A stretch of DNA of 37,440 bases from a phage (GCA_025289735.1 GCA_025289735.1_4764.1); one strand, 5' to 3'; positions 992-28,522 are shown, numbered from the stretch's first letter. The notes: a model not told the origin generated them from the sequence alone. Program-made: numbers and translations.

Positions 992-1195
992 TTATAGCTC
1001 AAATTTCATGAAAGTTCCTACACTTTCATTTTCATTCTCTCCGTTCTCATCTAAGCCAAATTTGTAGACACTACCATCTGGCGATGTGTAAGAGAATACA
1101 CGAAAACGGCCTACCGGGTCAAGTTCTGTAAATTCATATTCTTTTCCGGCTTCAAAAAGTGCATATGTGCTTTTAAGACATTTCATCGTAATCAT
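992..1195 (-). CDS. hypothetical protein (67 aa)
   Basis: ORF track; ATG 1195..1193 overlaps stop of upstream micro-ORF (ATGA coupling); ends 10 nt before primase start. No recognisable motif. Confidence 0.5.
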   Translation of the reverse strand: MITMKCLKSTYALFEAGKEYEFTELDPVGRFRVFSYTSPDGSVYKFGLDENGENENESVGTFMKFEL

Positions 1196-1923: not shown

Positions 1924-2559
1924 TCAAGCGAATGTAGAAAGCAAATGTTTTGTTTCTTTCAGTTGTCTTTCAAGATCTTTGCGTTTCTCTTTAAGTTGCA
2001 TTTTAGCATTATTTCGCTGTTTTTCAACATCTTTATCAATATGCTTAGTCCAATTATCAATATCAGAATAAGTTGGCATACCCAATTCTAGACCTAATGC
2101 GGTTGGATACAGGGTAACGGTCCATAAACCGCTAATCTTCTTAAATAGGTCTGGGTGTAGTGTACTATCTACATCTTCCGGTGTCAACTCTTTTTCTTCT
2201 TTCAGTGGTGGGATCTCGTCATATGGTTCCAGTGCATTTACTTTAATATCAGATACTTCATCAAAGAATCCGCGTACATCCGCAGGAAATACACAAGCAA
2301 TTTCCCAACCGTGATCACGCAGAGAAGTAATATTTTTCACTCCCCCACCATGTGTGATGATTGATGTGACATTACCATCAAGGTCCACCGAATTTACGAG
2401 AAATGGCTTATCGTCTGTCAGATCATTATAAAACTGTGCTTCGGCTGTAGTCATCTCCAGAAACAGATCTCGGATCGGACGACCATCCGGTGCGTTACCT
2501 TCCTTGAGAGTATAAAAGCGACTTACGATCCATTTTGGCGGTAAAGCATTAGCGATCAT
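1924..2559 (-). CDS. hypothetical protein (211 aa), charged coiled-coil C-terminus
   Basis: ORF track; ATG 2559 preceded by AGGAGA SD. No confident family assignment. Confidence 0.6.
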   Translation of the reverse strand: MIANALPPKWIVSRFYTLKEGNAPDGRPIRDLFLEMTTAEAQFYNDLTDDKPFLVNSVDLDGNVTSIITHGGGVKNITSLRDHGWEIACVFPADVRGFFDEVSDIKVNALEPYDEIPPLKEEKELTPEDVDSTLHPDLFKKISGLWTVTLYPTALGLELGMPTYSDIDNWTKHIDKDVEKQRNNAKMQLKEKRKDLERQLKETKHLLSTFA

Positions 2560-19414: not shown

Positions 19415-19673
19415 AAATCACCCTCAGTTCTTTATAGCCTCCAATGTGCTCGTTGTCAATGAATATCTGGGGGTATACAAACCGGAGGCTCTTTGAGTTC
19501 AGCCTCCCCGCCAGTTCTTCAATCATATCACGGTCGGGAATAATGTCAACCCCGACCTGCTTGAATACTGGTTTAAGTGTATACGGAATACCCAGGTCAT
19601 CCAGTAGCTTCATTGCACTAATACAACCATAACAATGATAAGCCTCTTTCGGTATACCGTATATCTCGATCAT
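19404..19673 (-). CDS. nrdH: glutaredoxin-like protein (NrdH/Grx family)
   Basis: 89 aa; CxxC (CYGC) near N-terminus and C-terminal YPQIFIDNEHIGGY, the glutaredoxin signature also in T4 grx-like proteins. Confidence 0.65.
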   Translation of the reverse strand: MIEIYGIPKEAYHCYGCISAMKLLDDLGIPYTLKPVFKQVGVDIIPDRDMIEELAGRLNSKSLRFVYPQIFIDNEHIGGYKELRVIYDY

Positions 19674-20146
19674 TTCTCAGCCTTTAATCTTTCTAGTTCT
19701 TCTTCCAGTTCCTTGATCCGTTGGTCACGTTCAAAGTCACGCTGTATCTTAGTGGCAAATACTCGCTTAAACTGATTGTAATCATCGATTTTAAACACTT
19801 CTTCTTCGCCATAGCGACGCACAGAAACTTCGTAGTTATTGAAGAATTGTTGCATCATTGCTTCGGATGATAGTTCTGCTGATACTACTTTAAAATATTG
19901 ATCTTCTGTAGGCGAAAACCAATTACAAGCATAAAGATAAACCTTTTCATTGTCTGGACACTGGTAAGCCTTACCATCGATTTCAATCACAGAAACATAT
20001 TCAGGTATAGTAGATGAATCAATAGCTAAGACTTTAAACGCACGGTCCCCGATAAACTCGGAGATCACACGATTCGCATCACTGGTTGCAAATGCTTTAC
20101 GCGCTTGTTCGTTTTTCCACTGATAGGTCATACCAACAACAAACAT
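19670..20146 (-). CDS. paralog family member P1 (~158 aa), repeat domain plus coiled-coil tail
   Basis: N-terminus MFVVGMTYQWKNEQARKAF matches 28190..28462 (MFKAGVAYVFKSEQARKDF) and the WExGKTYxWKD paralogs; ATG 20146 with GAGGT SD. Confidence 0.6.
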   Translation of the reverse strand: MFVVGMTYQWKNEQARKAFATSDANRVISEFIGDRAFKVLAIDSSTIPEYVSVIEIDGKAYQCPDNEKVYLYACNWFSPTEDQYFKVVSAELSSEAMMQQFFNNYEVSVRRYGEEEVFKIDDYNQFKRVFATKIQRDFERDQRIKELEEELERLKAEK

Positions 20147-20147
20147 A

Positions 20148-20972
20148 TTACCAACCTCGCTCTTTACCAATCAAAAATTCAACTTCACGACGTTTAATAT
20201 CTTCTTGAAGGTCTTTAATCTTCTGGCGATCTTGCATGATTTCATCCATCTTGTCAAGTGCCGCAATGAAATCATCGAAACGTTCAAAGGTTTTACCTTC
20301 ATTCGCTTCGCCAAATTTAACCATTGTCAGGCCGTAACGACTACTAAACAGACGTTTCAACTGTCCAACGATTTTAGAATCAGTGGTTATAACTTCCAAT
20401 TCTTCTATTTCACGAAAGAATTTTCTATCAGAATCAATAAACCAGCTAGTTCCTTTATGGTTGCTATCTTCGGTTGCACTCATTAGAGTATGGTCTTTAC
20501 CATCAATTTCAATTACATCAATTTGCCCACATGGACGAACATTTTTAACAGTAAAAGGTCTATAATTTATTGCTCGTGCAATAACATAATTAAGATTAGA
20601 TACGTTTTCAGCATAATGGCAGAAGTCGGTCATAGCATTCGCATCTTTCCAAGTATAAGTTTTACCAACTTCCCATTTCTGGGGAACTTCTTCAACTTCA
20701 CGAAAGAATTTTCGATCGAATGGACTAAAGAAATATGTTGCAGTCCAAATGTCTTTTCCTGTAGCAGTTTTCGCCGTATGATAAACACCGTCTAGCTCTA
20801 TTGCATCAATCCAACCGTTACCCTCGATCTCGATGATGGTAAATGGCTTGTCACCAATAGCTGCACTAATATCGCTGTTAAGTGGAGAAAGAACACCTTC
20901 TCCGTTAGTAATAAATTCAGTTTTAGCGTTTTCGTCTTTCCAGGTGTAAGTTTTACCAATTTCCCATTTCAT
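20148..20972 (-). CDS. paralog family member P2 (274 aa), two tandem repeat domains plus coiled-coil tail
   Basis: Internal duplication: MKWEIGKTYTWKDENAKTEF..DRKFFREVEE and QKWEVGKTYTWKDANAMTDF..DRKFFREIEE; ATG 20972 with AAGGGGAA SD. Confidence 0.65.
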   Translation of the reverse strand: MKWEIGKTYTWKDENAKTEFITNGEGVLSPLNSDISAAIGDKPFTIIEIEGNGWIDAIELDGVYHTAKTATGKDIWTATYFFSPFDRKFFREVEEVPQKWEVGKTYTWKDANAMTDFCHYAENVSNLNYVIARAINYRPFTVKNVRPCGQIDVIEIDGKDHTLMSATEDSNHKGTSWFIDSDRKFFREIEELEVITTDSKIVGQLKRLFSSRYGLTMVKFGEANEGKTFERFDDFIAALDKMDEIMQDRQKIKDLQEDIKRREVEFLIGKERGW

Positions 20973-20984
20973 AATATATTCCCC

Positions 20985-21449
20985 TTAACCGATTTTATCA
21001 AGTTCGTTTAATGCTTTCTCTGCTTCCTGTATAGCTTGCACCCTTTCCGGCATTTTGTCAAGAAAATCTTTCAACTCTTCAAAACTGGAGATATGACGCA
21101 AGGCGTTAGCACCGATAGCCGCATGTGATTTGCATTCAAAGCGGATTTTATAATTATCCATCGCCAACTTGAGAAGATCAATTAATTTAGATTCTTCTGG
21201 AATAATAATTTCTTCAAATCGGCTACGGTCATGATCCAGAAACCAACAAGATAGACCTACATCGGTTGAACTCATATAAGTTCCATCATGAAGATAAACA
21301 GACCGCACGTATCCTTTTTTCGCATCAACCGACGCAACTTTAAACGGCAATCGCAGATATTTCAAATAATCAACATCATACCATTTAAAAAATTGGTTTG
21401 CATCTTTTACATCTTTCCACGCATAGGTCTTACCAGCTTCCCATTTCAT
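20985..21449 (-). CDS. paralog family member P3 (~154 aa)
   Basis: MKWEAGKTYAWKD..RPF-like core..HDRSRFEEII; ATG 21449 has GAGAGA SD (track ATG 21464 has none). Confidence 0.6.
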   Translation of the reverse strand: MKWEAGKTYAWKDVKDANQFFKWYDVDYLKYLRLPFKVASVDAKKGYVRSVYLHDGTYMSSTDVGLSCWFLDHDRSRFEEIIIPEESKLIDLLKLAMDNYKIRFECKSHAAIGANALRHISSFEELKDFLDKMPERVQAIQEAEKALNELDKIG

Positions 21450-21453
21450 AATA

Positions 21454-21981
21454 TCATCTCTCATTTTTGATACGTGATTCTAATTGGATCATACGGTCGC
21501 GCGTTTGTTTGTATTCTCGGATAGCACCGATCCGGCTAGGCATACCACCCAGTACGCTCTTAATACCTTCTAGGGTAGTAATTTTGGCAATGCTATTATG
21601 TAACCCCATCTTATCGATCAACTGAATGTCGTAGGCTTCCATAAGCAGACCCAAGCGTTCTAAAGTTAGGTCTTCTTCTTTTTCTTCCGAATCTGGAATC
21701 TTAGGTTCAATAGTAACTTCGGTAAAGAAACGACGCTCACCCGACCAAAACCACACACCAGAACAGCCAATAGGGGATTCTTTTAACGTCATAGAGTCGA
21801 AATTACTACCAATAATAGTAATTTCTCTAACATCACCATCATCGTCAAGGTCTTCTACCCTAAACGGGCGACCAGCCAACAAGTCAACAATACATCTGTT
21901 AATAGACGACGAAAATTTAGTCAGTTCGGCTTTCGACGCTTCGCATTCAATCTTGTAAGTTTTACCAACTTCCCATTCCAT
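21454..21981 (-). CDS. paralog family member P4 (~175 aa)
   Basis: MEWEVGKTYKIE..GRPFRVEDL..GERRFFTEVT; ATG 21981 with GAGGTGA SD (track GTG 21990). Confidence 0.6.
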   Translation of the reverse strand: MEWEVGKTYKIECEASKAELTKFSSSINRCIVDLLAGRPFRVEDLDDDGDVREITIIGSNFDSMTLKESPIGCSGVWFWSGERRFFTEVTIEPKIPDSEEKEEDLTLERLGLLMEAYDIQLIDKMGLHNSIAKITTLEGIKSVLGGMPSRIGAIREYKQTRDRMIQLESRIKNER

Positions 21982-21991
21982 AATAATCACC

Positions 21992-22495
21992 TCAAATAAT
22001 TTTCACTGGAATACTATTAACAATCTTGTATTGTACTTGATTGTCAGACCCCCGCCACGGCTTTTTCGTTGGCATATCTTTAATATAACGCCCATCGATG
22101 AACATGTCAACTGATTCTACAATTTTTCTTTGCTCATCATTCAATTGGTCAAGGGTATAACCAGACCATAGCCAAATATCTTTATTTGGCATCCATGATT
22201 TTACTTCATCGATGATCCGCTGTACACCCTTTAAATTGCGTTTATACAGTGGATCACCTCCTAAGAATGTTAGCCCCTGAATAAAATCAGGTCTAAGCAG
22301 ATCCAGAATCAATCCCATTGTATCATCGGTGAATGGTTCCCCGTTCTTAGGATTGAGTATGCTAGCATTAAAGCAACCATCACATGCGTGTGAACATCCG
22401 GTAACGTAAAGGGAGACTCTCACTCCCTCACCGTTAACCATATCACAATCTTTAATATCGGCATAGCGTAGTTTGCCGTATGTATCAGAACTCAT
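21992..22495 (-). CDS. nrdG: anaerobic ribonucleotide reductase activating protein (radical SAM), NrdG
   Basis: CxxxCxxC cluster (GCSHACDGC), GGDPLY, KDIWLW.GY, PTKK.WRGSDNQ; colinear with T4 NrdG. ATG at 22495 preferred over the track start. Confidence 0.85.
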   Translation of the reverse strand: MSSDTYGKLRYADIKDCDMVNGEGVRVSLYVTGCSHACDGCFNASILNPKNGEPFTDDTMGLILDLLRPDFIQGLTFLGGDPLYKRNLKGVQRIIDEVKSWMPNKDIWLWSGYTLDQLNDEQRKIVESVDMFIDGRYIKDMPTKKPWRGSDNQVQYKIVNSIPVKII

Positions 22496-22637
22496 ATTCA
22501 ATTACCCCGAACTCGTTTACAATCTGCGCTTTATAGTAACCACCGCGAGATGCTAATAGATAAGCTGGGCTTAGGTATTCGTATTCACGGATTTCTACTT
22601 GTGCGTTTTCAGTTTCCCAAATCAGTAAAGTCCACAT
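22485..22637 (-). CDS. hypothetical small protein (50 aa)
   Basis: Track ORF 22485..22712 begins upstream of the -35 of promoter 22680..22708; the first ATG downstream (22637) has a strong AGGAGA SD. Confidence 0.4.
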   Translation of the reverse strand: MWTLLIWETENAQVEIREYEYLSPAYLLASRGGYYKAQIVNEFGVIEYEF

Positions 22638-22679
22638 ATTTGATTCTCCTGTAAAGTTGTATCTCGTCTTGATGAATAT

Positions 22680-22708
22680 AGTATAGGGGATCTCGCGATC
22701 CCCGTCAA
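22680..22708 (-). promoter_or_regulatory. PeSL-like early promoter (-35 TTGACG, 17 bp with palindrome GGGGATCGCGAGATCCCC, -10 TATACT)
   Basis: Plus strand agtata(22680-22685) and cgtcaa(22703-22708); spacer palindrome contains two GATC sites. Confidence 0.55.
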
Positions 22709-22712
22709 GCAT

Positions 22713-23258
22713 TTATTTAAATTTTTCGAGAGATTTCAACCACAGGCGGCCTGGTAGGTACTCTCCGGCAAACATGAAATTGTCATCTGGATAAGAACGC
22801 AGCATATTCAAAATAAACTTCCGACACTCTTCGTAATCTTTACGTTTAAGATAAATCACATTCTCGCCAGTACCGATCACACCTTTGCTGTATCCATGCT
22901 CTTTACGCACAGACCATTGTACAGTATCCTTTTTAACCCGAATCACAACAGGTTCCCAATACCCAGCGCATCCGGCTACACCACACGAACAGGTGAGGAA
23001 GTATTGACCTTTTGCTTTGTTTTCCTCCCACCCGATATTAACCGGATGCCATTCGTGAAACAAGGCTAAAGCATCGTGTGTCTCTTCGATCTGTTTATTG
23101 TCAATTCTTACCGTAACCATCCATACAGGGATCTTATTTGTTGGTTCATCATCATAACATGAATCATCATCAATATGTTTTAATGTCATATCAATATTGA
23201 TTGATTTTGCCGCGTCAATATGTCGTTGTGCTTTACGTTTACGGTTTAATGATTTCAT
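22713..23258 (-). CDS. hypothetical protein (~181 aa)
   Basis: ORF track; ATG 23258 with GAGGTGA SD (track start is GTG 23264). Confidence 0.55.
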   Translation of the reverse strand: MKSLNRKRKAQRHIDAAKSINIDMTLKHIDDDSCYDDEPTNKIPVWMVTVRIDNKQIEETHDALALFHEWHPVNIGWEENKAKGQYFLTCSCGVAGCAGYWEPVVIRVKKDTVQWSVRKEHGYSKGVIGTGENVIYLKRKDYEECRKFILNMLRSYPDDNFMFAGEYLPGRLWLKSLEKFK

Positions 23259-23275
23259 AGTCACCTCACATTATT

Positions 23276-23815
23276 TCAAAGATCGCGATATTGTACATTA
23301 TGAAAATGAGAACTTGCATTACCAATATTGTAGATAACAAATTCTTCATCCGGCGCTTGCGCTACAAATTGAGTATGAGCAACCGCCACAACCTTAAAAA
23401 TACGATCCGTGATCTTGTGTTTAATTTCTGCCCCTACTTCCATAGGAACATATTCATTTGTTTCTGTTTCAGTCGCAAAACAGCCATCTTCTTCATAAGC
23501 ACGAACAAATCGATCGCAATCAGTACGCTTAACAAATTCAAGAGTATACAATTCTCGTGAATTGTCGGTATAGACCAATACAGAATTATTATGATAGCGA
23601 ATAACATACAGGTTATTATCATCGTCAATTACGCAAAAGCTACGGATTCCTTCGCCTTGACTCCAGCAGATATTAACCACCGTTCCTCTAATAAAAAAAC
23701 TTTCCTTTAAATTAAAACTAGTCAATGTGCTAGCGTGCATTTTAACAACAACACCATCACCAATTTCCAATTTACGAAGTTTAACTTCTTTGCTCAGTAC
23801 ACAAAACATCATCAT
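23276..23815 (-). CDS. hypothetical protein (179 aa)
   Basis: ORF track; conserved leader AACAACGAGAGGA..ATG downstream of promoter 23845..23872. Confidence 0.55.
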   Translation of the reverse strand: MMMFCVLSKEVKLRKLEIGDGVVVKMHASTLTSFNLKESFFIRGTVVNICWSQGEGIRSFCVIDDDNNLYVIRYHNNSVLVYTDNSRELYTLEFVKRTDCDRFVRAYEEDGCFATETETNEYVPMEVGAEIKHKITDRIFKVVAVAHTQFVAQAPDEEFVIYNIGNASSHFHNVQYRDL

Positions 23816-23844
23816 GTTGTCCTCTCGTTGTTTTCGATGTGAGC

Positions 23845-23872
23845 ATTATACATTAGCTAATCCGGTTGTCAA
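23845..23872 (-). promoter_or_regulatory. sigma70-type early promoter (-35 TTGACA, 16 bp, -10 TATAAT)
   Basis: Plus strand attata(23845-23850) and tgtcaa(23867-23872); part of a ~100-bp module repeated at 36428..36530. Confidence 0.65.
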
Positions 23873-23883
23873 CACCCCAAAAC

Positions 23884-23910
23884 GAAAAAGCCGACCCTTT
23901 CGGATCGGCT
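23884..23910 (-). terminator. intrinsic terminator after nrdD (GAAA tetraloop hairpin plus T-run)
   Basis: Minus strand AGCCGATCCgaaaGGGTCGGCT followed by TTTTT, 6 nt after the nrdD stop. Confidence 0.6.
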
Positions 23911-23915
23911 GAAAA

Positions 23916-25778
23916 TTACATGTGCTTAACGCGGTTTACCATCTCGGAGTGTTTCCCGTGGTTAAATGGACGCAGATCAACAGATCCAAGATATCCACTA
24001 ACGCGACGGATAACATTCATCTTTTCCAGATTGTCATTGCCGCAATCAGGGCAAACAAAACCAGACTCGGTCGCTCTCATTTCCTTATTAGATCCACATA
24101 CATGACATACATCAGAAGGAGTGTTAACACCGAAGTAGTGCAATTTATCCATTGCATAGTCTACTACAGTTTCAAGACCTTTCAGGTTGTTTTTCATGTC
24201 TGGGAACTCAACATAAGAGATCATGCCACCGGACGCCAGCCAGTGATAATCTTTCTCAAAGTCGATTTTCTCAAATGGTGTGACTTTCCGGTCTACGTCA
24301 AGGTGGAATGAGTTGGTGTACCAGTCTTTATCGGTAGCACCCTTAACAATACCAAATTGCTCTCTGTCCAGTCGATTAAATCGATAGCAAAGGCTCTCGG
24401 CTGGCGTACCGTAAAGACTAAACCCAAGTCCGGTTTCGTCCTTCCATTTTTCAGTATAATGACGCAAGATCTTAAGAATATGTTTACCGTATCGCTGCGC
24501 ATCTTCCGAATCAAACGGATGAACATCAAACAGGACGCTCAATACCTCATGTAAACCAATATATCCAAGAGAGATACTAGCGCGACCATCTTTCAGCACT
24601 TCCAAAATTTCATCGTTTTGATGAATACGGAAAAATGCACCTTCGGTATACAGTACAGGAGCAACATTGGCTTTAGCCCCTTTTAAAGCGTCTACGCGAC
24701 TCATAAGCGCATCAAAACAAATAGGCATACGATTAGCTAGCTCTTGTTCGAATAGCTCAATTCTGCGCATTACAGACGCTTTACCAGCACGACGAGCGGC
24801 AATAAGGGCAATACGCGGAAGATTCAGAGTCACAACACCTAAGTTATTACGTCCGTCTAATACTTCCTCGCCTTTATCATTATGCCACACACCCAGGAAG
24901 CTACGACAACCCATCGGGCTAACCGGAACACTAGATCCAGTGATGCTACGGTTATTCTTCGCAGAGATATAATCAGGGTAAAGACGCTTACTAGAACATT
25001 CCAATGCAAGTTGCTTAATGTCGTAGTTCGGATCTTCCGGGTTAAGGTTTAATCCTTCTTCTAAGAACATCACCAGCTTAGGAAACACCGGAGTGATACC
25101 ATCTTTACCTAAACCTTTAGTTCGAACTTTCAGGATCGCTTTCTGAATCAGTTTTTCTTCCCAGCTCGTACCCATACCAAAGGTTAAAGTCACAAAAGGC
25201 GTTTGACCATTGGTAGAGAACAAAGTGTTGATCTCATATTCCAACGCCTGATATCCGTCTAACGTTTCTTTTTCTGTCTTCTCTTGTGCATAGAGAGTAT
25301 CAGCTTTGATTCCGTAGGTTTCGGCATCAGCAAGGTGTTTATGATATGTTTTCTCAACGTATGGCGCTAAAACCTGATCGATGTTTGCAATTGTGGTCCC
25401 GCCATATTGATGACTTGCCACCTGTGCGATAATTTGAGCGGTTACAGCACAAGCAACGCCGATCGATTTCGGACTTTCGATTTGTGCGCTACCCAATTTA
25501 AAACCATTCTCTAACATGTCTTTGAGATTAACAAGACAGCAGTTAGTAAACGGCATAGCTGGTGCATAATCCATATCATGATAATGAATATCACCGTCTA
25601 CATGCGCTTTATAGATGTGCTCAGGTAACACGGTTTTAGCAATCTGTTTAGACACAGCGCCAGCAATCAGATCTCGACGTGTCGGGAATGTTCGCGCGTC
25701 TTTGTTCGCGTTCTCTTTGCTTACTTCGTTTTCTTTACCCGTTGCGATCTCTGTAATGTCTTTGATTAGTTTTTCCAT
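23916..25778 (-). CDS. nrdD: anaerobic ribonucleoside-triphosphate reductase NrdD (glycyl-radical enzyme)
   Basis: 620 aa; C-terminal zinc-ribbon cysteines (CHVCG..CPDCG) and glycyl-radical motif RVSGYLG; uninterrupted reading frame (no intron); ATG 25778 with AGGTGA SD. Confidence 0.95.
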   Translation of the reverse strand: MEKLIKDITEIATGKENEVSKENANKDARTFPTRRDLIAGAVSKQIAKTVLPEHIYKAHVDGDIHYHDMDYAPAMPFTNCCLVNLKDMLENGFKLGSAQIESPKSIGVACAVTAQIIAQVASHQYGGTTIANIDQVLAPYVEKTYHKHLADAETYGIKADTLYAQEKTEKETLDGYQALEYEINTLFSTNGQTPFVTLTFGMGTSWEEKLIQKAILKVRTKGLGKDGITPVFPKLVMFLEEGLNLNPEDPNYDIKQLALECSSKRLYPDYISAKNNRSITGSSVPVSPMGCRSFLGVWHNDKGEEVLDGRNNLGVVTLNLPRIALIAARRAGKASVMRRIELFEQELANRMPICFDALMSRVDALKGAKANVAPVLYTEGAFFRIHQNDEILEVLKDGRASISLGYIGLHEVLSVLFDVHPFDSEDAQRYGKHILKILRHYTEKWKDETGLGFSLYGTPAESLCYRFNRLDREQFGIVKGATDKDWYTNSFHLDVDRKVTPFEKIDFEKDYHWLASGGMISYVEFPDMKNNLKGLETVVDYAMDKLHYFGVNTPSDVCHVCGSNKEMRATESGFVCPDCGNDNLEKMNVIRRVSGYLGSVDLRPFNHGKHSEMVNRVKHM

Positions 25779-25796
25779 TGTATCACCTATGAAAAA

Positions 25797-25813
25797 GCGG
25801 GATTTTCTCCCGC
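25797..25813 (-). terminator. hairpin plus T-run abutting the nrdD ribosome-binding site
   Basis: Minus strand GCGGGAgaaaaTCCCGC followed by TTTTTCAT then AGGTGA SD; terminator or attenuator for transcripts from upstream genes. Confidence 0.4.
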
Positions 25814-25824
25814 TCGTTGATAGT

Positions 25825-26319
25825 TTATTTTACCAGTTCTGCCAATTCTTTTTCTTTAGCTTCCAGTTCAGCCTTAAGCTGTTTAATCTCTTGTCGCTTC
25901 TTATTAGCGGCTTCCTGCTTACTATTTCGGATAACCTGATCTAGATACAACTCCCAATCCTGAATATTTTTGATAATGTAGCCGTCAACATTAATTGGTC
26001 GGAGATTCAGTACAGCTTCCAGTTTAGTTGCAAAAACTTTAATTGCTGGTGTGAAGTATTCATACTCGTTATCTTCAAACCAATAACCTAGACTTGCATT
26101 ATCAATACGAAGACGAAGTTTAAGATCAAGGTCTTTATCGTCGGTGTAAAGATCTTTCACCTGCCCCATCGAGCTAACAACAACTTTAAAACGAATTTTA
26201 TCTACACCACCAAACACATCTTCAAGAATATCAGCAATTGAGCTATTAGCGCAAGATTGGTCGCTGAATGCGTCAAGGTTTTCTTTAGTTACAGTATACC
26301 AAACATCTTGTACCCACAT
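25825..26319 (-). CDS. paralog family member Q4 (164 aa), coiled-coil C-terminus
   Basis: ATG 26319 with conserved leader GAGAGGATTATATT; C-terminal coiled coil (KQLKAELEAKEKELAELVK) like other family members. Confidence 0.55.
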   Translation of the reverse strand: MWVQDVWYTVTKENLDAFSDQSCANSSIADILEDVFGGVDKIRFKVVVSSMGQVKDLYTDDKDLDLKLRLRIDNASLGYWFEDNEYEYFTPAIKVFATKLEAVLNLRPINVDGYIIKNIQDWELYLDQVIRNSKQEAANKKRQEIKQLKAELEAKEKELAELVK

Positions 26320-26349
26320 AATATAATCCTCTCGTTGTTAAGTGGGAGT

Positions 26350-26377
26350 ATTATAGCATACTCCCTTCGCATGTCAA
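26350..26377 (-). promoter_or_regulatory. PeSL-like early promoter (-35 TTGACA, 16 bp, -10 TATAAT; hairpin GGGAGTATgctataATACTCCC over the -10)
   Basis: Plus strand attata(26350-26355) and tgtcaa(26372-26377). Confidence 0.65.
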
Positions 26378-27552
26378 GCGCTAACTTTTTTCTTTACTGC
26401 TTTCACCTTCTGGCGAATTGCTCGAATCTCTTCGATCTCTTTTTCAGTATCTTTAACAATTTCTTTGCGATTCTGAATATCTTTATCGAGATTATCATCA
26501 AGTTTAGGCAGCATGTCAATCAAGAACTTTTTAAGGTCTTTCAGGTTTCGGATAACAGCACCTTCACCCATTACCGCCACCCCTACACCATCCGGCAGAT
26601 CACCAAACAGTTTAACCAGTTCAGACAGATGATCATGATCTTCTAGTGCTTCTTCCGGTTCAGATGGCAGTTCCACAAAGTAATAACGTTCATCATTGCT
26701 GATCAAGTGATACCAGCAAAGCCCAAAAGATTTAGGAGTATATTCTACACCATCAATTTCAACCGCGTCAACACTTCCATAATCATCTACTTTAGTTACC
26801 TTAAATCCTTGGCCCAGCTTTTGAACAATTTCAACAACATGACTTGATACAGTTTCAGCGGTAAACCAATATGGCAAATTATGTTGATTTGGCTTGTAGC
26901 GTTCACCTACTTTAAATCTCTGACCAGCCGCTTGCATAGAATGAAATTGTTGTTTCGTGATTTCCGCGAAGTATTCAAATTCGCCACCATCAAACACACA
27001 AGCCCATTGATCACAAAAACGTTCTGCCTTAACAGTTTCACCTTTCGCGGTGATCATGGTAGCTGATCCGTGCAATTCTTCTTCAACTAAAAAGCCATAT
27101 TCGACAAAATCAGCAAGTTTCATAGCTTCTTTGTGATCTGGATCATGCTCTCCCCAGAATCGCTTAAATTCTTGCAAACCTTCTGGGGTAAACGAATAAC
27201 ATTTACCTTTTTCAAAGTAAGTCGGCATTGCATCCTCTTTCTTGTTCATCGCTTCGTATGCCTCTTTTGAGATACGTTTAAAGTATTTACGCTCATTGTT
27301 CATAATCATAGTAGCCCAATAATCCACAATATCATTAGCGGAATAAACTACATCACCAGCTTCAATAGTAATAACATGACCGTGGTCATCTTTTTCTAAT
27401 ACTTTAAAGCCCTTTTCTACGATTTCAGCAACCCGAATATGACCACGGCGCGAAGCATCGGTCAGAATAATTGAATAGCGAGAAAAGTCTAGAAACTCAT
27501 CTTTACCGCCTTCACGGAATGCATAGTAATGACCTTCAAAGAATTTAGCCAT
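26374..27552 (-). CDS. paralog family member Q3 (392 aa), three repeat domains plus coiled-coil tail
   Basis: Three copies of the GF(K/L)V..(I/V)EIDG..(E/D)R(K/Y)(Y/F)F module (GFKVLEKDDHGHVITIEAG, GFLVEEELHGSATMITAKG, GFKVTKVDDYGSVDAVEIDG); ATG 27552 with conserved leader. Confidence 0.65.
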   Translation of the reverse strand: MAKFFEGHYYAFREGGKDEFLDFSRYSIILTDASRRGHIRVAEIVEKGFKVLEKDDHGHVITIEAGDVVYSANDIVDYWATMIMNNERKYFKRISKEAYEAMNKKEDAMPTYFEKGKCYSFTPEGLQEFKRFWGEHDPDHKEAMKLADFVEYGFLVEEELHGSATMITAKGETVKAERFCDQWACVFDGGEFEYFAEITKQQFHSMQAAGQRFKVGERYKPNQHNLPYWFTAETVSSHVVEIVQKLGQGFKVTKVDDYGSVDAVEIDGVEYTPKSFGLCWYHLISNDERYYFVELPSEPEEALEDHDHLSELVKLFGDLPDGVGVAVMGEGAVIRNLKDLKKFLIDMLPKLDDNLDKDIQNRKEIVKDTEKEIEEIRAIRQKVKAVKKKVSA

Positions 27553-27583
27553 AATATAATCCTCTCGTTGTTTAGATGGGAGT

Positions 27584-27612
27584 ATCTTACTACTCCAGTT
27601 TCATCATGTCAA
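27584..27612 (-). promoter_or_regulatory. PeSL-like early promoter (-35 TTGACA, 17 bp, -10 TAAGAT)
   Basis: Plus strand atctta(27584-27589) and tgtcaa(27607-27612); spacer holds palindrome GGAGTAgtaagaTACTCC. Confidence 0.55.
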
Positions 27613-28175
27613 GCGTTAAATGACTTTTGGATCTCTTTCAGTTCAGCTACTTTATCGGCGCTATATTTTGCTTGATGTTCCATGCGCTTAATCTCACCTT
27701 TGATATAGGTTTCTAGCTTAGGTTTATTCTCAATCAGAAAATCTTTCAAGTCATCGGCATTTTTAAAGTATAGCTGATTGTCAAAGCTAAAATCTTCCAG
27801 CGTCAATGATACCAAAGAAGACTTCGCAAACAAGTTAATCAGACCTTCCAGAGATTCTTCTTTCTTAACTGGTTTCATTTCTTCAAACTGCTTTTTAGTG
27901 ATGCGTTTAAAGTATTTGCGCTCGCTTGCATCAATCAGAATCGATGCACCCTCATAATCATGAGTTTCTACCAAATACACATTACCCATAACATTAACGG
28001 TCAGAACTTTAAAGCCATTGCGAAGCACATCATGCAGGAATTTGTTATGTTGTGGGTATAGTTTAACAAATTCAACAGCAGCATTAACACTACGGAAAGT
28101 ATAGTAACGGCCTCGTTCAAAAACGGCATCATTTGAAGACTTAGCCAGATACACTTTATACGTTTTCTGTACCAT
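27609..28175 (-). CDS. paralog family member Q2 (~188 aa)
   Basis: NGFKVLTVNVMGNVYLVE..SERKYFKRIT core; ATG 28175 with AGAGGA SD. Confidence 0.6.
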   Translation of the reverse strand: MVQKTYKVYLAKSSNDAVFERGRYYTFRSVNAAVEFVKLYPQHNKFLHDVLRNGFKVLTVNVMGNVYLVETHDYEGASILIDASERKYFKRITKKQFEEMKPVKKEESLEGLINLFAKSSLVSLTLEDFSFDNQLYFKNADDLKDFLIENKPKLETYIKGEIKRMEHQAKYSADKVAELKEIQKSFNA

Positions 28176-28189
28176 AATACAATCCTCTA

Positions 28190-28462
28190 TCATTTCACTA
28201 ATTGAACAGCACGAAACAGAATGCGGTCACACGGAAGAAGCATAAATTCCCAACGCGGATCAAAGTCTTTAGCGGTGTATGTTTTCCCATCAACCGAGAT
28301 TTCACTTACATAACCAATAGGTGACACTTTAAGAACAGTAAACCCATTCTTGATGACTTCGTAGGTATCTTTCAAACCTTCGTAGTCATCCTCTAAGAAG
28401 TCTTTACGTGCTTGCTCAGATTTAAAAACATAGGCAACACCAGCTTTAAACATCTTACGCAT
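28190..28462 (-). CDS. paralog family member Q1 (~90 aa, single repeat domain)
   Basis: Track start lies inside the promoter -35; ATG 28462 has AAGGAG SD. MFKAGVAYVFKSEQARKDF..NGFTVLKV..VDGKTYTAKDF. Confidence 0.55.
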   Translation of the reverse strand: MRKMFKAGVAYVFKSEQARKDFLEDDYEGLKDTYEVIKNGFTVLKVSPIGYVSEISVDGKTYTAKDFDPRWEFMLLPCDRILFRAVQLVK

Positions 28463-28493
28463 TGTTGATTCTCCTTCTTGATTAGATGGGAGT

Positions 28494-28522
28494 ATTTTAC
28501 TACTCCCATTTCTTATTGTCAA
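28494..28522 (-). promoter_or_regulatory. PeSL-like early promoter (-35 TTGACA, 17 bp, -10 TAAAAT)
   Basis: Plus strand atttta(28494-28499) and tgtcaa(28517-28522); spacer palindrome GGGAGTAgtaaaaTACTCCC. Confidence 0.55.

Follow-up and report, generated by a model that had tools for sequence, protein, structure and literature searches.

Bacteriophage T4 encodes three single-module proteins, GoF together with Frd.2 and MotB.1, that were described in 2025 as a family with an 'LSm-like fold', MotB.1 being assigned to it on structural grounds (Kim et al., PMC12152347). GoF, also known as comC-alpha and the founding member of the family, is early and dispensable, is present at about 20,000 copies per cell and runs partly as a dimer; the nearest solved folds of its family are FeoA-type SH3 domains; the substitutions D25Y and G84R each relieve the growth block that T4 meets in rho-mutant hosts; and GoF(D25Y) stabilises a reporter mRNA post-transcriptionally, whereas wild-type GoF does not do so (PMC12152347). 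RB49, paralogue expansion and tandem modules are not mentioned in that account. In phi1 and RB49, on the other side, promoter-early stem-loop cassettes, or PeSLs, have been described and functionally tested, their promoter activity being shown experimentally in phi1, with nrdD named as a PeSL-associated plastic locus (Arbiol et al. 2010, PMC2839356; PeSLs are also treated in Comeau et al. 2014, PMC4122927). Here, we consider a stretch of phage DNA of 37,440 nucleotides (GCA_025289735.1; 'the window' below) carrying nine genes, eight of them in two clusters around nrdG and nrdD, which are an expanded set of GoF/Frd.2-family accessory proteins of Krischvirus, presumably expressed early. Our main result is that their barrel modules have been exchanged between Krischvirus strains as intragenic cassettes on constant tails.

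The window belongs to a Krischvirus of the RB49/phi1/JSE type, and is 95–98% identical to the genomes of RB49, phi1, JSE, LF73P4 and others. The two gene clusters (A1–A4 and B1–B4; Table 1) were compared with those of RB49, FL04 and E26. Across these strains NrdD, NrdG, NrdH, gp49 and NrdC show 98–99% protein identity, while A1–A4 fall to 64–75% in FL04 or E26, and the B3 allele of the window is only 72–75% identical to those of RB49, FL04 and E26. Over whole genes, the synonymous divergence (dS) is 0.35–0.75 in A1–A4 and B3, against 0.04–0.09 in their neighbours, with a ratio of non-synonymous to synonymous divergence (dN/dS) of 0.15–0.5, and the genes are therefore maintained. The divergence lies very largely in the modules. 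Between the window and FL04, module and tail are 48% and 93% identical in A4, 46% and 100% in A3, and 65% and 91% in A1; in A2, module a is 100%, module b 36% and the tail about 99% identical. Against E26, the A3 module is again 46% and its tail 100% identical, and module b of A2, replaced in FL04, is absent altogether, module a and the tail being 91–100% identical. Across Krischvirus strains, then, modules are 36–65% and tails 88–100% identical. With a sliding window of 60 nucleotides (nt), blocks of 27–77% identity alternate with blocks of 88–100%, the breaks falling at module borders, and among 36 public clusters of A4 orthologues the module has a mean pairwise identity of 77% (minimum 42.5%) and the tail 96.5%.

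Where might the variant modules have come from? Gene conversion between paralogues is ruled out as their source, since the variants in FL04 and E26 are nearest to their own positional orthologues, and because of this they are best seen as divergent alleles of the same slot. The synonymous divergence between the window and FL04 is 0.9–1.6 (that is, saturated) in the modules and only 0.16–0.26 in the tails, from which it follows that old alleles have been moved by recombination; hypermutation in situ, of the kind associated with diversity-generating retroelements, is rejected by inference on the same grounds. A further gene between nrdD and nrdG shows a comparable pattern: the 183-amino-acid (aa) open reading frame (ORF) at 22713-23264(-), which matches phrog_8242, is about 49% identical to its counterparts in RB49, FL04 and E26 amid neighbours at 97–100%, and is another hotspot of allelic replacement, not belonging to the GoF family.

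Is the repeat itself real? Hidden Markov models (HMMs) were built with every module of the tested protein excluded, and 2,200 shuffled modules served as control. Nine modules were recovered with E-values of 2.7e-18 to 2e-8, B1 with 1.6e-4 and B2b with 6.7e-3, compared with about 0.05–0.3 for the best of the shuffled modules. The weakest member is B1, which scores 19.2 bits where the best shuffle reaches 10.3 bits. It is also attached only weakly to the single network that BLAST forms among the eight proteins, and it cross-hits phrog_3710 and phrog_622, as the A proteins do. The motifs of the 11-module alignment are W/F-x-x-G-x-x-Y, (P/G)F-x-V ... G-x-V ... I-E-x-D-G, and (D/E)R-x-(F/Y)F. HMMs built without it also found a ninth member (20–31 bits, E-values of 3e-8 to 1e-4), the RB49 orthologue of which is annotated as Dc2; in a BFVD fold search, Dc2 of phage ECD7 matches the A4 model (E 6e-7). 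When RB49 was scanned outside its late genes at 90–114 kb, over about 140 of its 164 kb, the only clear matches were these nine proteins, with twelve modules. Two weaker resemblances came to light. A 67-aa ORF at 992-1195(-) in the window (phrog_9181) has an N-terminus somewhat like the start of a module (FEAGKEYEF; E 0.28) and is probably not a member. RB49 ORF125c (60237-60611, outside the window) gives a weak full-length profile alignment (E 0.12, profile positions 8–88) and may be a very divergent, MotB.1-like tenth member.

An earlier, sequence-only reading of this DNA had proposed eight ORFs forming a paralogue family in two clusters around nrdG–nrdD, and this description is correct: all eight ORFs lie on the minus strand at the coordinates proposed, the shared module of about 90 aa and the motifs quoted for it are borne out by the 11-copy alignment and the leave-one-out HMMs, which beat the shuffles, and the assignment of one, two (20148-20972) or three (26374-27552) modules per protein agrees both with HMM domain calls and with the secondary structure of AlphaFold models. 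The membership has to be raised from eight to nine by the Dc2 orthologue. The family expansion that it described is indeed large, at nine genes, but was not a recent burst: the paralogues are 20–35% identical and the modules only 13–40% identical to each other, for which reason the expansion is old, with a single more recent internal duplication (A2a and A2b, at 53%).

The same reading did not recognise the family, which has a name: in T4, GoF and Frd.2 carry the module as their N-terminal domain, and both the goF and frd.2 labels and the 2025 description already existed. A profile made from window modules alone finds, by hmmsearch against T4, GoF residues 4–91 with 36.5 bits and Frd.2 with 15.9 bits, and hhalign gives a probability of 96.2% for GoF (E 2e-9, 88 columns) and 93.0% for Frd.2 (E 3.5e-7). 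MotB.1 aligns with the window profile over its full length but marginally (8 bits), and its hhalign comparison is not significant (26.6% over 43 columns, half of the module). Among PHROGs, the family of B2 and B3 bears the annotation 'goF mRNA metabolism modulator', and the remaining proteins cross-hit related PHROGs; the same label is already attached to two of the genes in RefSeq, and the name frd.2 for the RB49 counterpart of B2 dates from 2003. Pfam models Frd.2 alone, GoF itself having no Pfam family. Against PF03197 (FRD2, cut-off 29 bits), T4 Frd.2 scores 133.3 bits and B2 only 20.2 bits, through its third module alone, on account of which B2 is a distant, triple-module relative of Frd.2 and not its orthologue; none of the other family proteins of the window matches PF03197. 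Apart from FRD2, the Pfam scan returned sub-threshold noise, with no match to LSM or to FeoA (PF04023), and searches of NCBIfam, PADLOC and PDB sequences gave no matches. Taking all this together, we regard it as almost certain that the window modules belong to the GoF/Frd.2 family. A literature search on frd.2, motB.1 and goF yielded PMC12152347 as the sole relevant work, and one on RB49 and anti-defence nothing specific.

The family is restricted to T4-type phages. A search of 1.84 billion representative proteins gave only 83 matching clusters (at 50% identity). A few of them are spurious, and several of the genuine ones carry two or three modules. Matches to large repeat proteins were set aside: P0059 (797 aa, a Gram-positive surface repeat protein of the Cna-B/SpaA type) is a spurious sum of partial matches, and P0096, P0106 and P0122 were judged spurious by extension from it. 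Homologue searches with single sequences and with profiles gave mostly close orthologues and a handful of distant relatives, and tblastn matches lie almost wholly in Krischvirus, where at least 80% of the 9.2-kb locus is covered in 58 of 59 records. In BFVD there are 68 structural matches at E ≤ 1e-3; the 50 listed are all uncharacterised phage proteins, nearly all of T4-type phages (of Escherichia, Aeromonas, Edwardsiella, Proteus, Pectobacterium, Klebsiella and others), often with several per phage, and Dc2 is among them. On a distant T4-like metagenomic contig (L008), a gp49-like gene and nrdD are closely preceded, on their upstream side, by a run of four or five family genes with several modules, and another such contig (L009) has a two-module family gene immediately upstream of nrdH. 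On the former contig (5900-11600), the two- and three-module genes are upstream of a GIY-YIG/EndoVII fusion gene, and nrdD is split by a homing endonuclease. In T4, goF and motB.1 lie between 39 and dexA, and frd.2 beside frd, td and nrdA. We read this synteny as the occupation of long-lived hyperplastic slots, and not as a functional link to ribonucleotide reduction.

What kind of structure is being exchanged? According to the AlphaFold2 model of A4 (mean predicted local distance difference test score, pLDDT, 76.8; mostly 73–95 in the module), the module runs b1-a-a-b2-b3-b4-short helix-b5, with strands at residues 8–11, 40–45, 51–57, 63–66 and 86–89, and helices at 14–35 and 80–85. A low-pLDDT linker (97–104) then leads to a helix, a hairpin, another helix and a terminal helix of 28 residues. 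In the B2 model the same order of strands and helices comes three times (modules a and c show it in full, and module b is without a call for the fifth strand), with a pLDDT of about 90 in the first module and moderate values in the others, followed by a low-pLDDT linker from residue 298 and a final helix of about 55 residues; with a predicted TM-score (pTM) of 0.38, no fixed packing of the three modules is predicted. The nearest solved fold of the module has the FeoA-type SH3 topology. Hfq and Sm proteins are missing from both top-60 lists of structural matches, and so is the N-terminal Sm helix from the models, in which b1 comes first and two helices are inserted between b1 and b2; for these reasons the label that can be defended is 'SH3-like, FeoA-type barrel', and specific support for 'LSm' is lacking. 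The architecture is one to three FeoA/SH3-like barrels with a two-helix insert and, except in B4, a tail in which a short alpha/beta element is combined with a long charged helix. Eight of the twelve modules are acidic (isoelectric point, pI, 4.3–5.3); B3 is the only clearly basic one (pI 9.4), with B4 at 7.8.

The C-terminal parts beyond the flexible linker differ between proteins. Leave-one-out HMMs on the tails did not beat shuffles, the tails being charged and of low complexity, and we therefore claim no common tail domain; a heptad script was uninformative, as it picked globular segments. The tails had previously been called variable. That holds for the paralogues as a group, which are not significantly alike in their tails, but not throughout: B4 is tailless, and A3/A4 and B2/B3 align through their tails by BLAST.

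All genes of the region are on the minus strand, in the transcription order dam, nrdC, gene 49, B4, B3, B2, B1, nrdD, three small ORFs, nrdG, A4, A3, A2, A1, nrdH. A search for the PeSL pattern gave three matches where none was expected, upstream of B4, B2 and B1, each followed by a Shine–Dalgarno sequence and an ATG. For both B3 (27607-27612) and B2 (26372-26377), the TGA stop lies within the −35 hexamer of the PeSL that follows (GCTTGACA), which fuses the end of one gene with the start of a promoter. No PeSL element is found upstream of B3, which starts 14 nt past the B4 stop or overlaps B4 as ATGA, or upstream of A1–A4. The sequence-only reading had given each gene of the B cluster its own near-consensus promoter; this applies to B4, B2 and B1 (TTGACA-N16/17-TAnnAT) and not to B3. 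It had also proposed translational coupling of the A genes, with which their spacing behind nrdG (gaps of 10, 4, 12 and 1 nt, then an ATGA overlap with nrdH) is compatible, though not proof of it. The terminator-like hairpin between B1 and nrdD probably closes the B transcription unit. The consensus promoter nearest to the A genes is in a terminator-plus-promoter element at 23845-23910(-), the promoter itself being at 23845-23872. It seems likely from these signals that the B genes are expressed early from sigma-70 PeSLs and the A genes as a packed run between nrdG and nrdH.

Table 1. Family genes, their modules and tails, and associated expression signals (positions in the window; E, leave-one-out HMM E-value unless stated otherwise).
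Feature	Position	Strand	Length (aa)	RB49 counterpart	Module(s)	Tail	Remarks
A1	19670..20146	-	158 (from ATG 20146)	RB49ORF048c	~19871-20146	19670-19870	phrog_5347; E 5e-13; stop overlaps nrdH start (ATGA)
A2	20148..20972	-	274	RB49ORF049c	a 20682-20972; b 20388-20681	20148-20387	
A3	20985..21449	-	154	RB49ORF050c	21180-21449	20985-21179	E 2e-11
A4	21454..21981	-	175	RB49ORF051c	21691-21981	21454-21690	start 10 nt past nrdG stop
B1	25825..26319	-	164	RB49ORF057c	26026-26319 (single, divergent)	charged, helical	
B2	26374..27552	-	392	frd.2	a 27241-27552; b 26929-27231; c 26644-26928	26374-26643	phrog_8944 (match E 1.6e-212)
B3	27609..28193	-	188-194	RB49ORF059c	27858-28130	27609-27857	E 2e-11; start ATG 28175, or ATG 28193 overlapping B4 stop
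B4	28190..28462	-	90 (from ATG 28462)	RB49ORF060c	lone module	absent	E 3e-15; phrog_16115; longer TTG-started ORF extends into promoter
Ninth member	1924..2559	-	211	Dc2	2245-2541	present	E 3e-7; directly downstream of helicase gene 41
PeSL of B4	28487..28522	-					TTGACA-17-TAAAAT; hairpin GGGAGTA/TACTCCC around -10; -13.8 kcal/mol, z -4.5
PeSL of B2	27577..27612	-					TTGACA-17-TAAGAT; hairpin with TGGAGTA arm; -9.9 kcal/mol
PeSL of B1	26343..26377	-					TTGACA-16-TATAAT (12/12); hairpin GGGAGTA/TACTCCC around -10; -16.3 kcal/mol, z -4.5
Terminator-like hairpin + U5	25792..25815	-					between B1 and nrdD; -16.9 kcal/mol, z -5.6

Some further features of the region may be recorded here. No promoter was recognisable between the terminator-like hairpin and nrdD. 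In the element downstream of nrdD, a promoter with 12/12 consensus positions (TTGACA-16-TATAAT) comes immediately after a terminator hairpin. In JSE, a homing endonuclease splits nrdD into two annotated pieces, and the nrdD of the window (23916-25778(-)) is intact and single. The motif GGAG, the target of the RegB endoribonuclease, occurs in the Shine–Dalgarno regions of B4 (28463-28480, AAGGAGAA) and Dc2 (2560-2575, TAGGAGAT), the remaining family genes having GAGG-type sites; RB49 encodes regB. Between gene 41 and Dc2 there is a GC-rich hairpin at about 2588-2603 (-14.2 kcal/mol) with no U-run, and it is the mRNA level of gene 41, directly upstream of Dc2, that T4 GoF(D25Y) affects.

How might these proteins act? 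Our preference, which is tentative, is for a modular adaptor model with early action on mRNA fate or on host factors. The barrel would be the unit of target recognition and the tail the constant part, serving for self-association or for docking to a common partner. During early host takeover, the proteins would act on the fate of mRNA (termination or decay), like the GoF alleles of T4, mainly by engaging particular transcripts or host factors of RNA metabolism, rather than in the manner of a general RNA chaperone of the Hfq type. Separate paralogues and separate module alleles would recognise separate targets, and the alleles would be exchanged between phages by homologous recombination, with the conserved tails and the conserved motifs at the module edges providing the arms. 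A lead, rather than a result, comes from the positions of the GoF suppressor mutations: many Krischvirus paralogues may naturally be in the suppressor-allele state, because in the profile alignment seven of the twelve window modules have Y, W, F, F, F, L or M in the D25 column, and five have K or R in the G84 column, which belongs to the (D/E)R(K/R)(F/Y)F motif. The residue in the D25 column is aromatic in A2b, A3, A4, B2a and B2b, but not in A2a or B4.

Several points weigh against this model. The comparison at D25 and G84 rests on alignment through the indel-rich helical insert. In the reporter assay the wild-type forms of GoF and MotB.1 did little, and deletion gives no laboratory phenotype (PMC12152347); a wild-type function is not demonstrated for any member of the family. 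Acidic modules fit the binding of protein better than that of RNA, and fit functions unrelated to RNA equally well. Dimerisation through the tails has no computational support, the similarity of tail to tail not being significant in sequence, and B3 departs from the general pattern in that its tail is more variable than its module.

A possible but doubtful alternative, nearly as likely as the adaptor mechanism, is that the proteins serve in counter-defence or immune evasion unrelated to mRNA, the variable barrels inhibiting strain-specific defence proteins, or the divergent alleles escaping host sensors. The allele pattern and the acidic modules favour it: ancient, sharply bounded module alleles stand on constant tails among flanking genes that are 98–99% identical, in A2 a module has been gained, lost or replaced, and acidic barrels are of a protein-binding type. 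Moreover, the genes sit in a hyperplastic, PeSL-rich region, and the family is non-essential in the laboratory. On the other hand, none of the eight genes is missing from the genomes examined, and 58 of 59 Krischvirus records cover at least 80% of the locus, unlike anti-defence cargo with its typical presence or absence. In addition, such genetic evidence as there is for the family implicates Rho and mRNA stability. Known anti-defence proteins were not found among the sequence or fold matches, and no similarity to PADLOC models was seen, though PADLOC holds defence, not anti-defence, genes. A bolder idea, which we think rather unlikely, is that the GoF-type barrel might be a hypervariable specificity domain, about a dozen of which Krischviruses would carry on constant tails, ancient barrel alleles being kept in the phage population and swapped as intragenic cassettes because each barrel neutralises or evades a different strain-specific host factor (for example, a defence protein, a nuclease, or a partner of Rho or RNase). 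GoF(D25Y) would then be a laboratory glimpse of a specificity switch.

Direct binding of RNA by phage-encoded Hfq/LSm-like chaperones, which is the working hypothesis of PMC12152347, and in which tandem modules and coiled-coil tails would build pseudo-oligomeric surfaces, we consider unlikely for the window proteins. It is true that GoF(D25Y) lengthens mRNA half-life independently of Hfq, and that Rop, an unrelated RNA-binding protein, gives the same suppression (PMC12152347); that small bent five-stranded barrels commonly bind RNA; that B3 and B4 (pI 9.4 and 7.8) are basic or near-neutral; and that a dimer of the three-module protein would give six barrels. Nevertheless, most modules are acidic, the N-terminal Sm helix is absent (b1 coming first, with helices inserted after it), there are no Pfam LSM and no Sm/Hfq structural matches, and packing between the modules of B2 is not predicted (pTM 0.38), while AlphaFold3 gave no confident homo-oligomers for GoF or MotB.1, most RNA complexes were below threshold, and wild-type GoF was inactive in the RNA assay (PMC12152347). 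Two other explanations are essentially excluded. The position of the clusters, flanking nrdD, nrdG, nrdH and nrdC, might suggest that the proteins are subunits with an accessory role, or regulators, in anaerobic ribonucleotide reduction and in the function of redoxins; the family genes of L008 and L009 do occupy similar slots (upstream of gp49–nrdD, and upstream of nrdH), and T4 frd.2 lies beside frd/td/nrdA. Such a role is very improbable in view of the location of T4 goF and motB.1 among 39, cef, motB and dexA and of the ninth window member beside gene 41, the intrinsic terminator between B1 and nrdD, the B genes' own PeSL promoters, the known status of nrdD as a PeSL-associated plastic locus, and the hypervariability of modules next to NrdD and NrdG, which are 99% conserved. 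That the motifs reflect mere chance or compositional similarity among unrelated small ORFs, as low pairwise identities (17–40%) and the weakness of B1 and B2b might hint, has a negligible likelihood: the shared motifs are significant (leave-one-out E-values down to 3e-18, shuffles giving at least 0.05), every modelled module has the same predicted topology, T4 GoF and Frd.2 are matched independently, and all the genes are under purifying selection across the genus.

What does this add? The family and the promoter elements were already published, as were two of the gene labels. The expansion to nine proteins with twelve modules, compared with three single-module proteins in T4, is new, as are the two- and three-module proteins and the ninth member, and above all the exchange of barrels within genes. 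The suggestion of the sequence-only reading that this is a locus of the host-interaction type gains from that exchange, ancient divergent barrel cassettes having been swapped on near-identical tails in the A cluster, but not as regards function itself, which our finding does not establish; nor does it reveal a new kind of system. It does bear on a puzzle that has been around since the 1970s: GoF mutants rescue T4 on rho-mutant hosts, and the wild-type protein is not known to have a role. In another genus the family proves to be three times larger, and its barrel can be tandem; in nature, variation and exchange affect the barrel instead of the tail, and many natural barrels seem to carry the residue types that make GoF active in an mRNA-stability assay. 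The question of what the barrel targets is made more tractable by a ready-made allele series (RB49 type versus FL04 and E26 types) and by the multi-domain variants. If the idea of a specificity domain is true, a repertoire of such domains is probably present in many T4-type phages.

Finally, we return to the systems that these genes most resemble. T4 GoF has a homologous N-terminal barrel of about 90 aa and the same layout of barrel, linker and unrelated C-terminal part, with FeoA as the nearest solved fold, occurrence in T4-type phages only, and early expression, presumed here; it differs in having one module and a short acidic tail, against one to three modules and a mostly long helical tail in the window proteins, and in Krischvirus goF is absent from the place, between 39 and dexA, that it has in T4. 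The N-terminal domain of Frd.2 is matched by the module profile, but B2 adjoins nrdD and not frd, and from MotB.1 the window proteins are set apart by grouping with the GoF/Frd.2 branch, with no significant sequence similarity to MotB.1. To FeoA and to the SH3-like C-terminal domains of DtxR, IdeR and MntR the resemblance is one of fold only, with no sequence similarity, and the window offers no feoB or metal-regulator context, being instead a phage early region. With Hfq and the Sm and LSm proteins, the modules share a small, strongly bent, five-stranded antiparallel barrel, one family member being genetically tied to mRNA stability; they lack the N-terminal Sm helix and Sm motifs, evidence for a ring is absent, and they are mostly acidic. 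All the described parts of PeSLs (an upstream stop, consensus −35 and −10 elements, a stem-loop over the −10, and a Shine–Dalgarno sequence with start codon) are present upstream of B4, B2 and B1, but there are none at the A cluster or B3, so that the module exchange in the A cluster, which is within genes and not between them, is not PeSL-mediated. A parallel to that exchange is offered by T-even tail-fibre adhesins such as gp38, in which hypervariable segments bounded by conserved motifs are exchanged by recombination: in both cases divergent cassettes are swapped at short conserved flanks in near-identical genomes, the adhesins being receptor-binding proteins of the virion, and the proteins described here predicted cytoplasmic early proteins.

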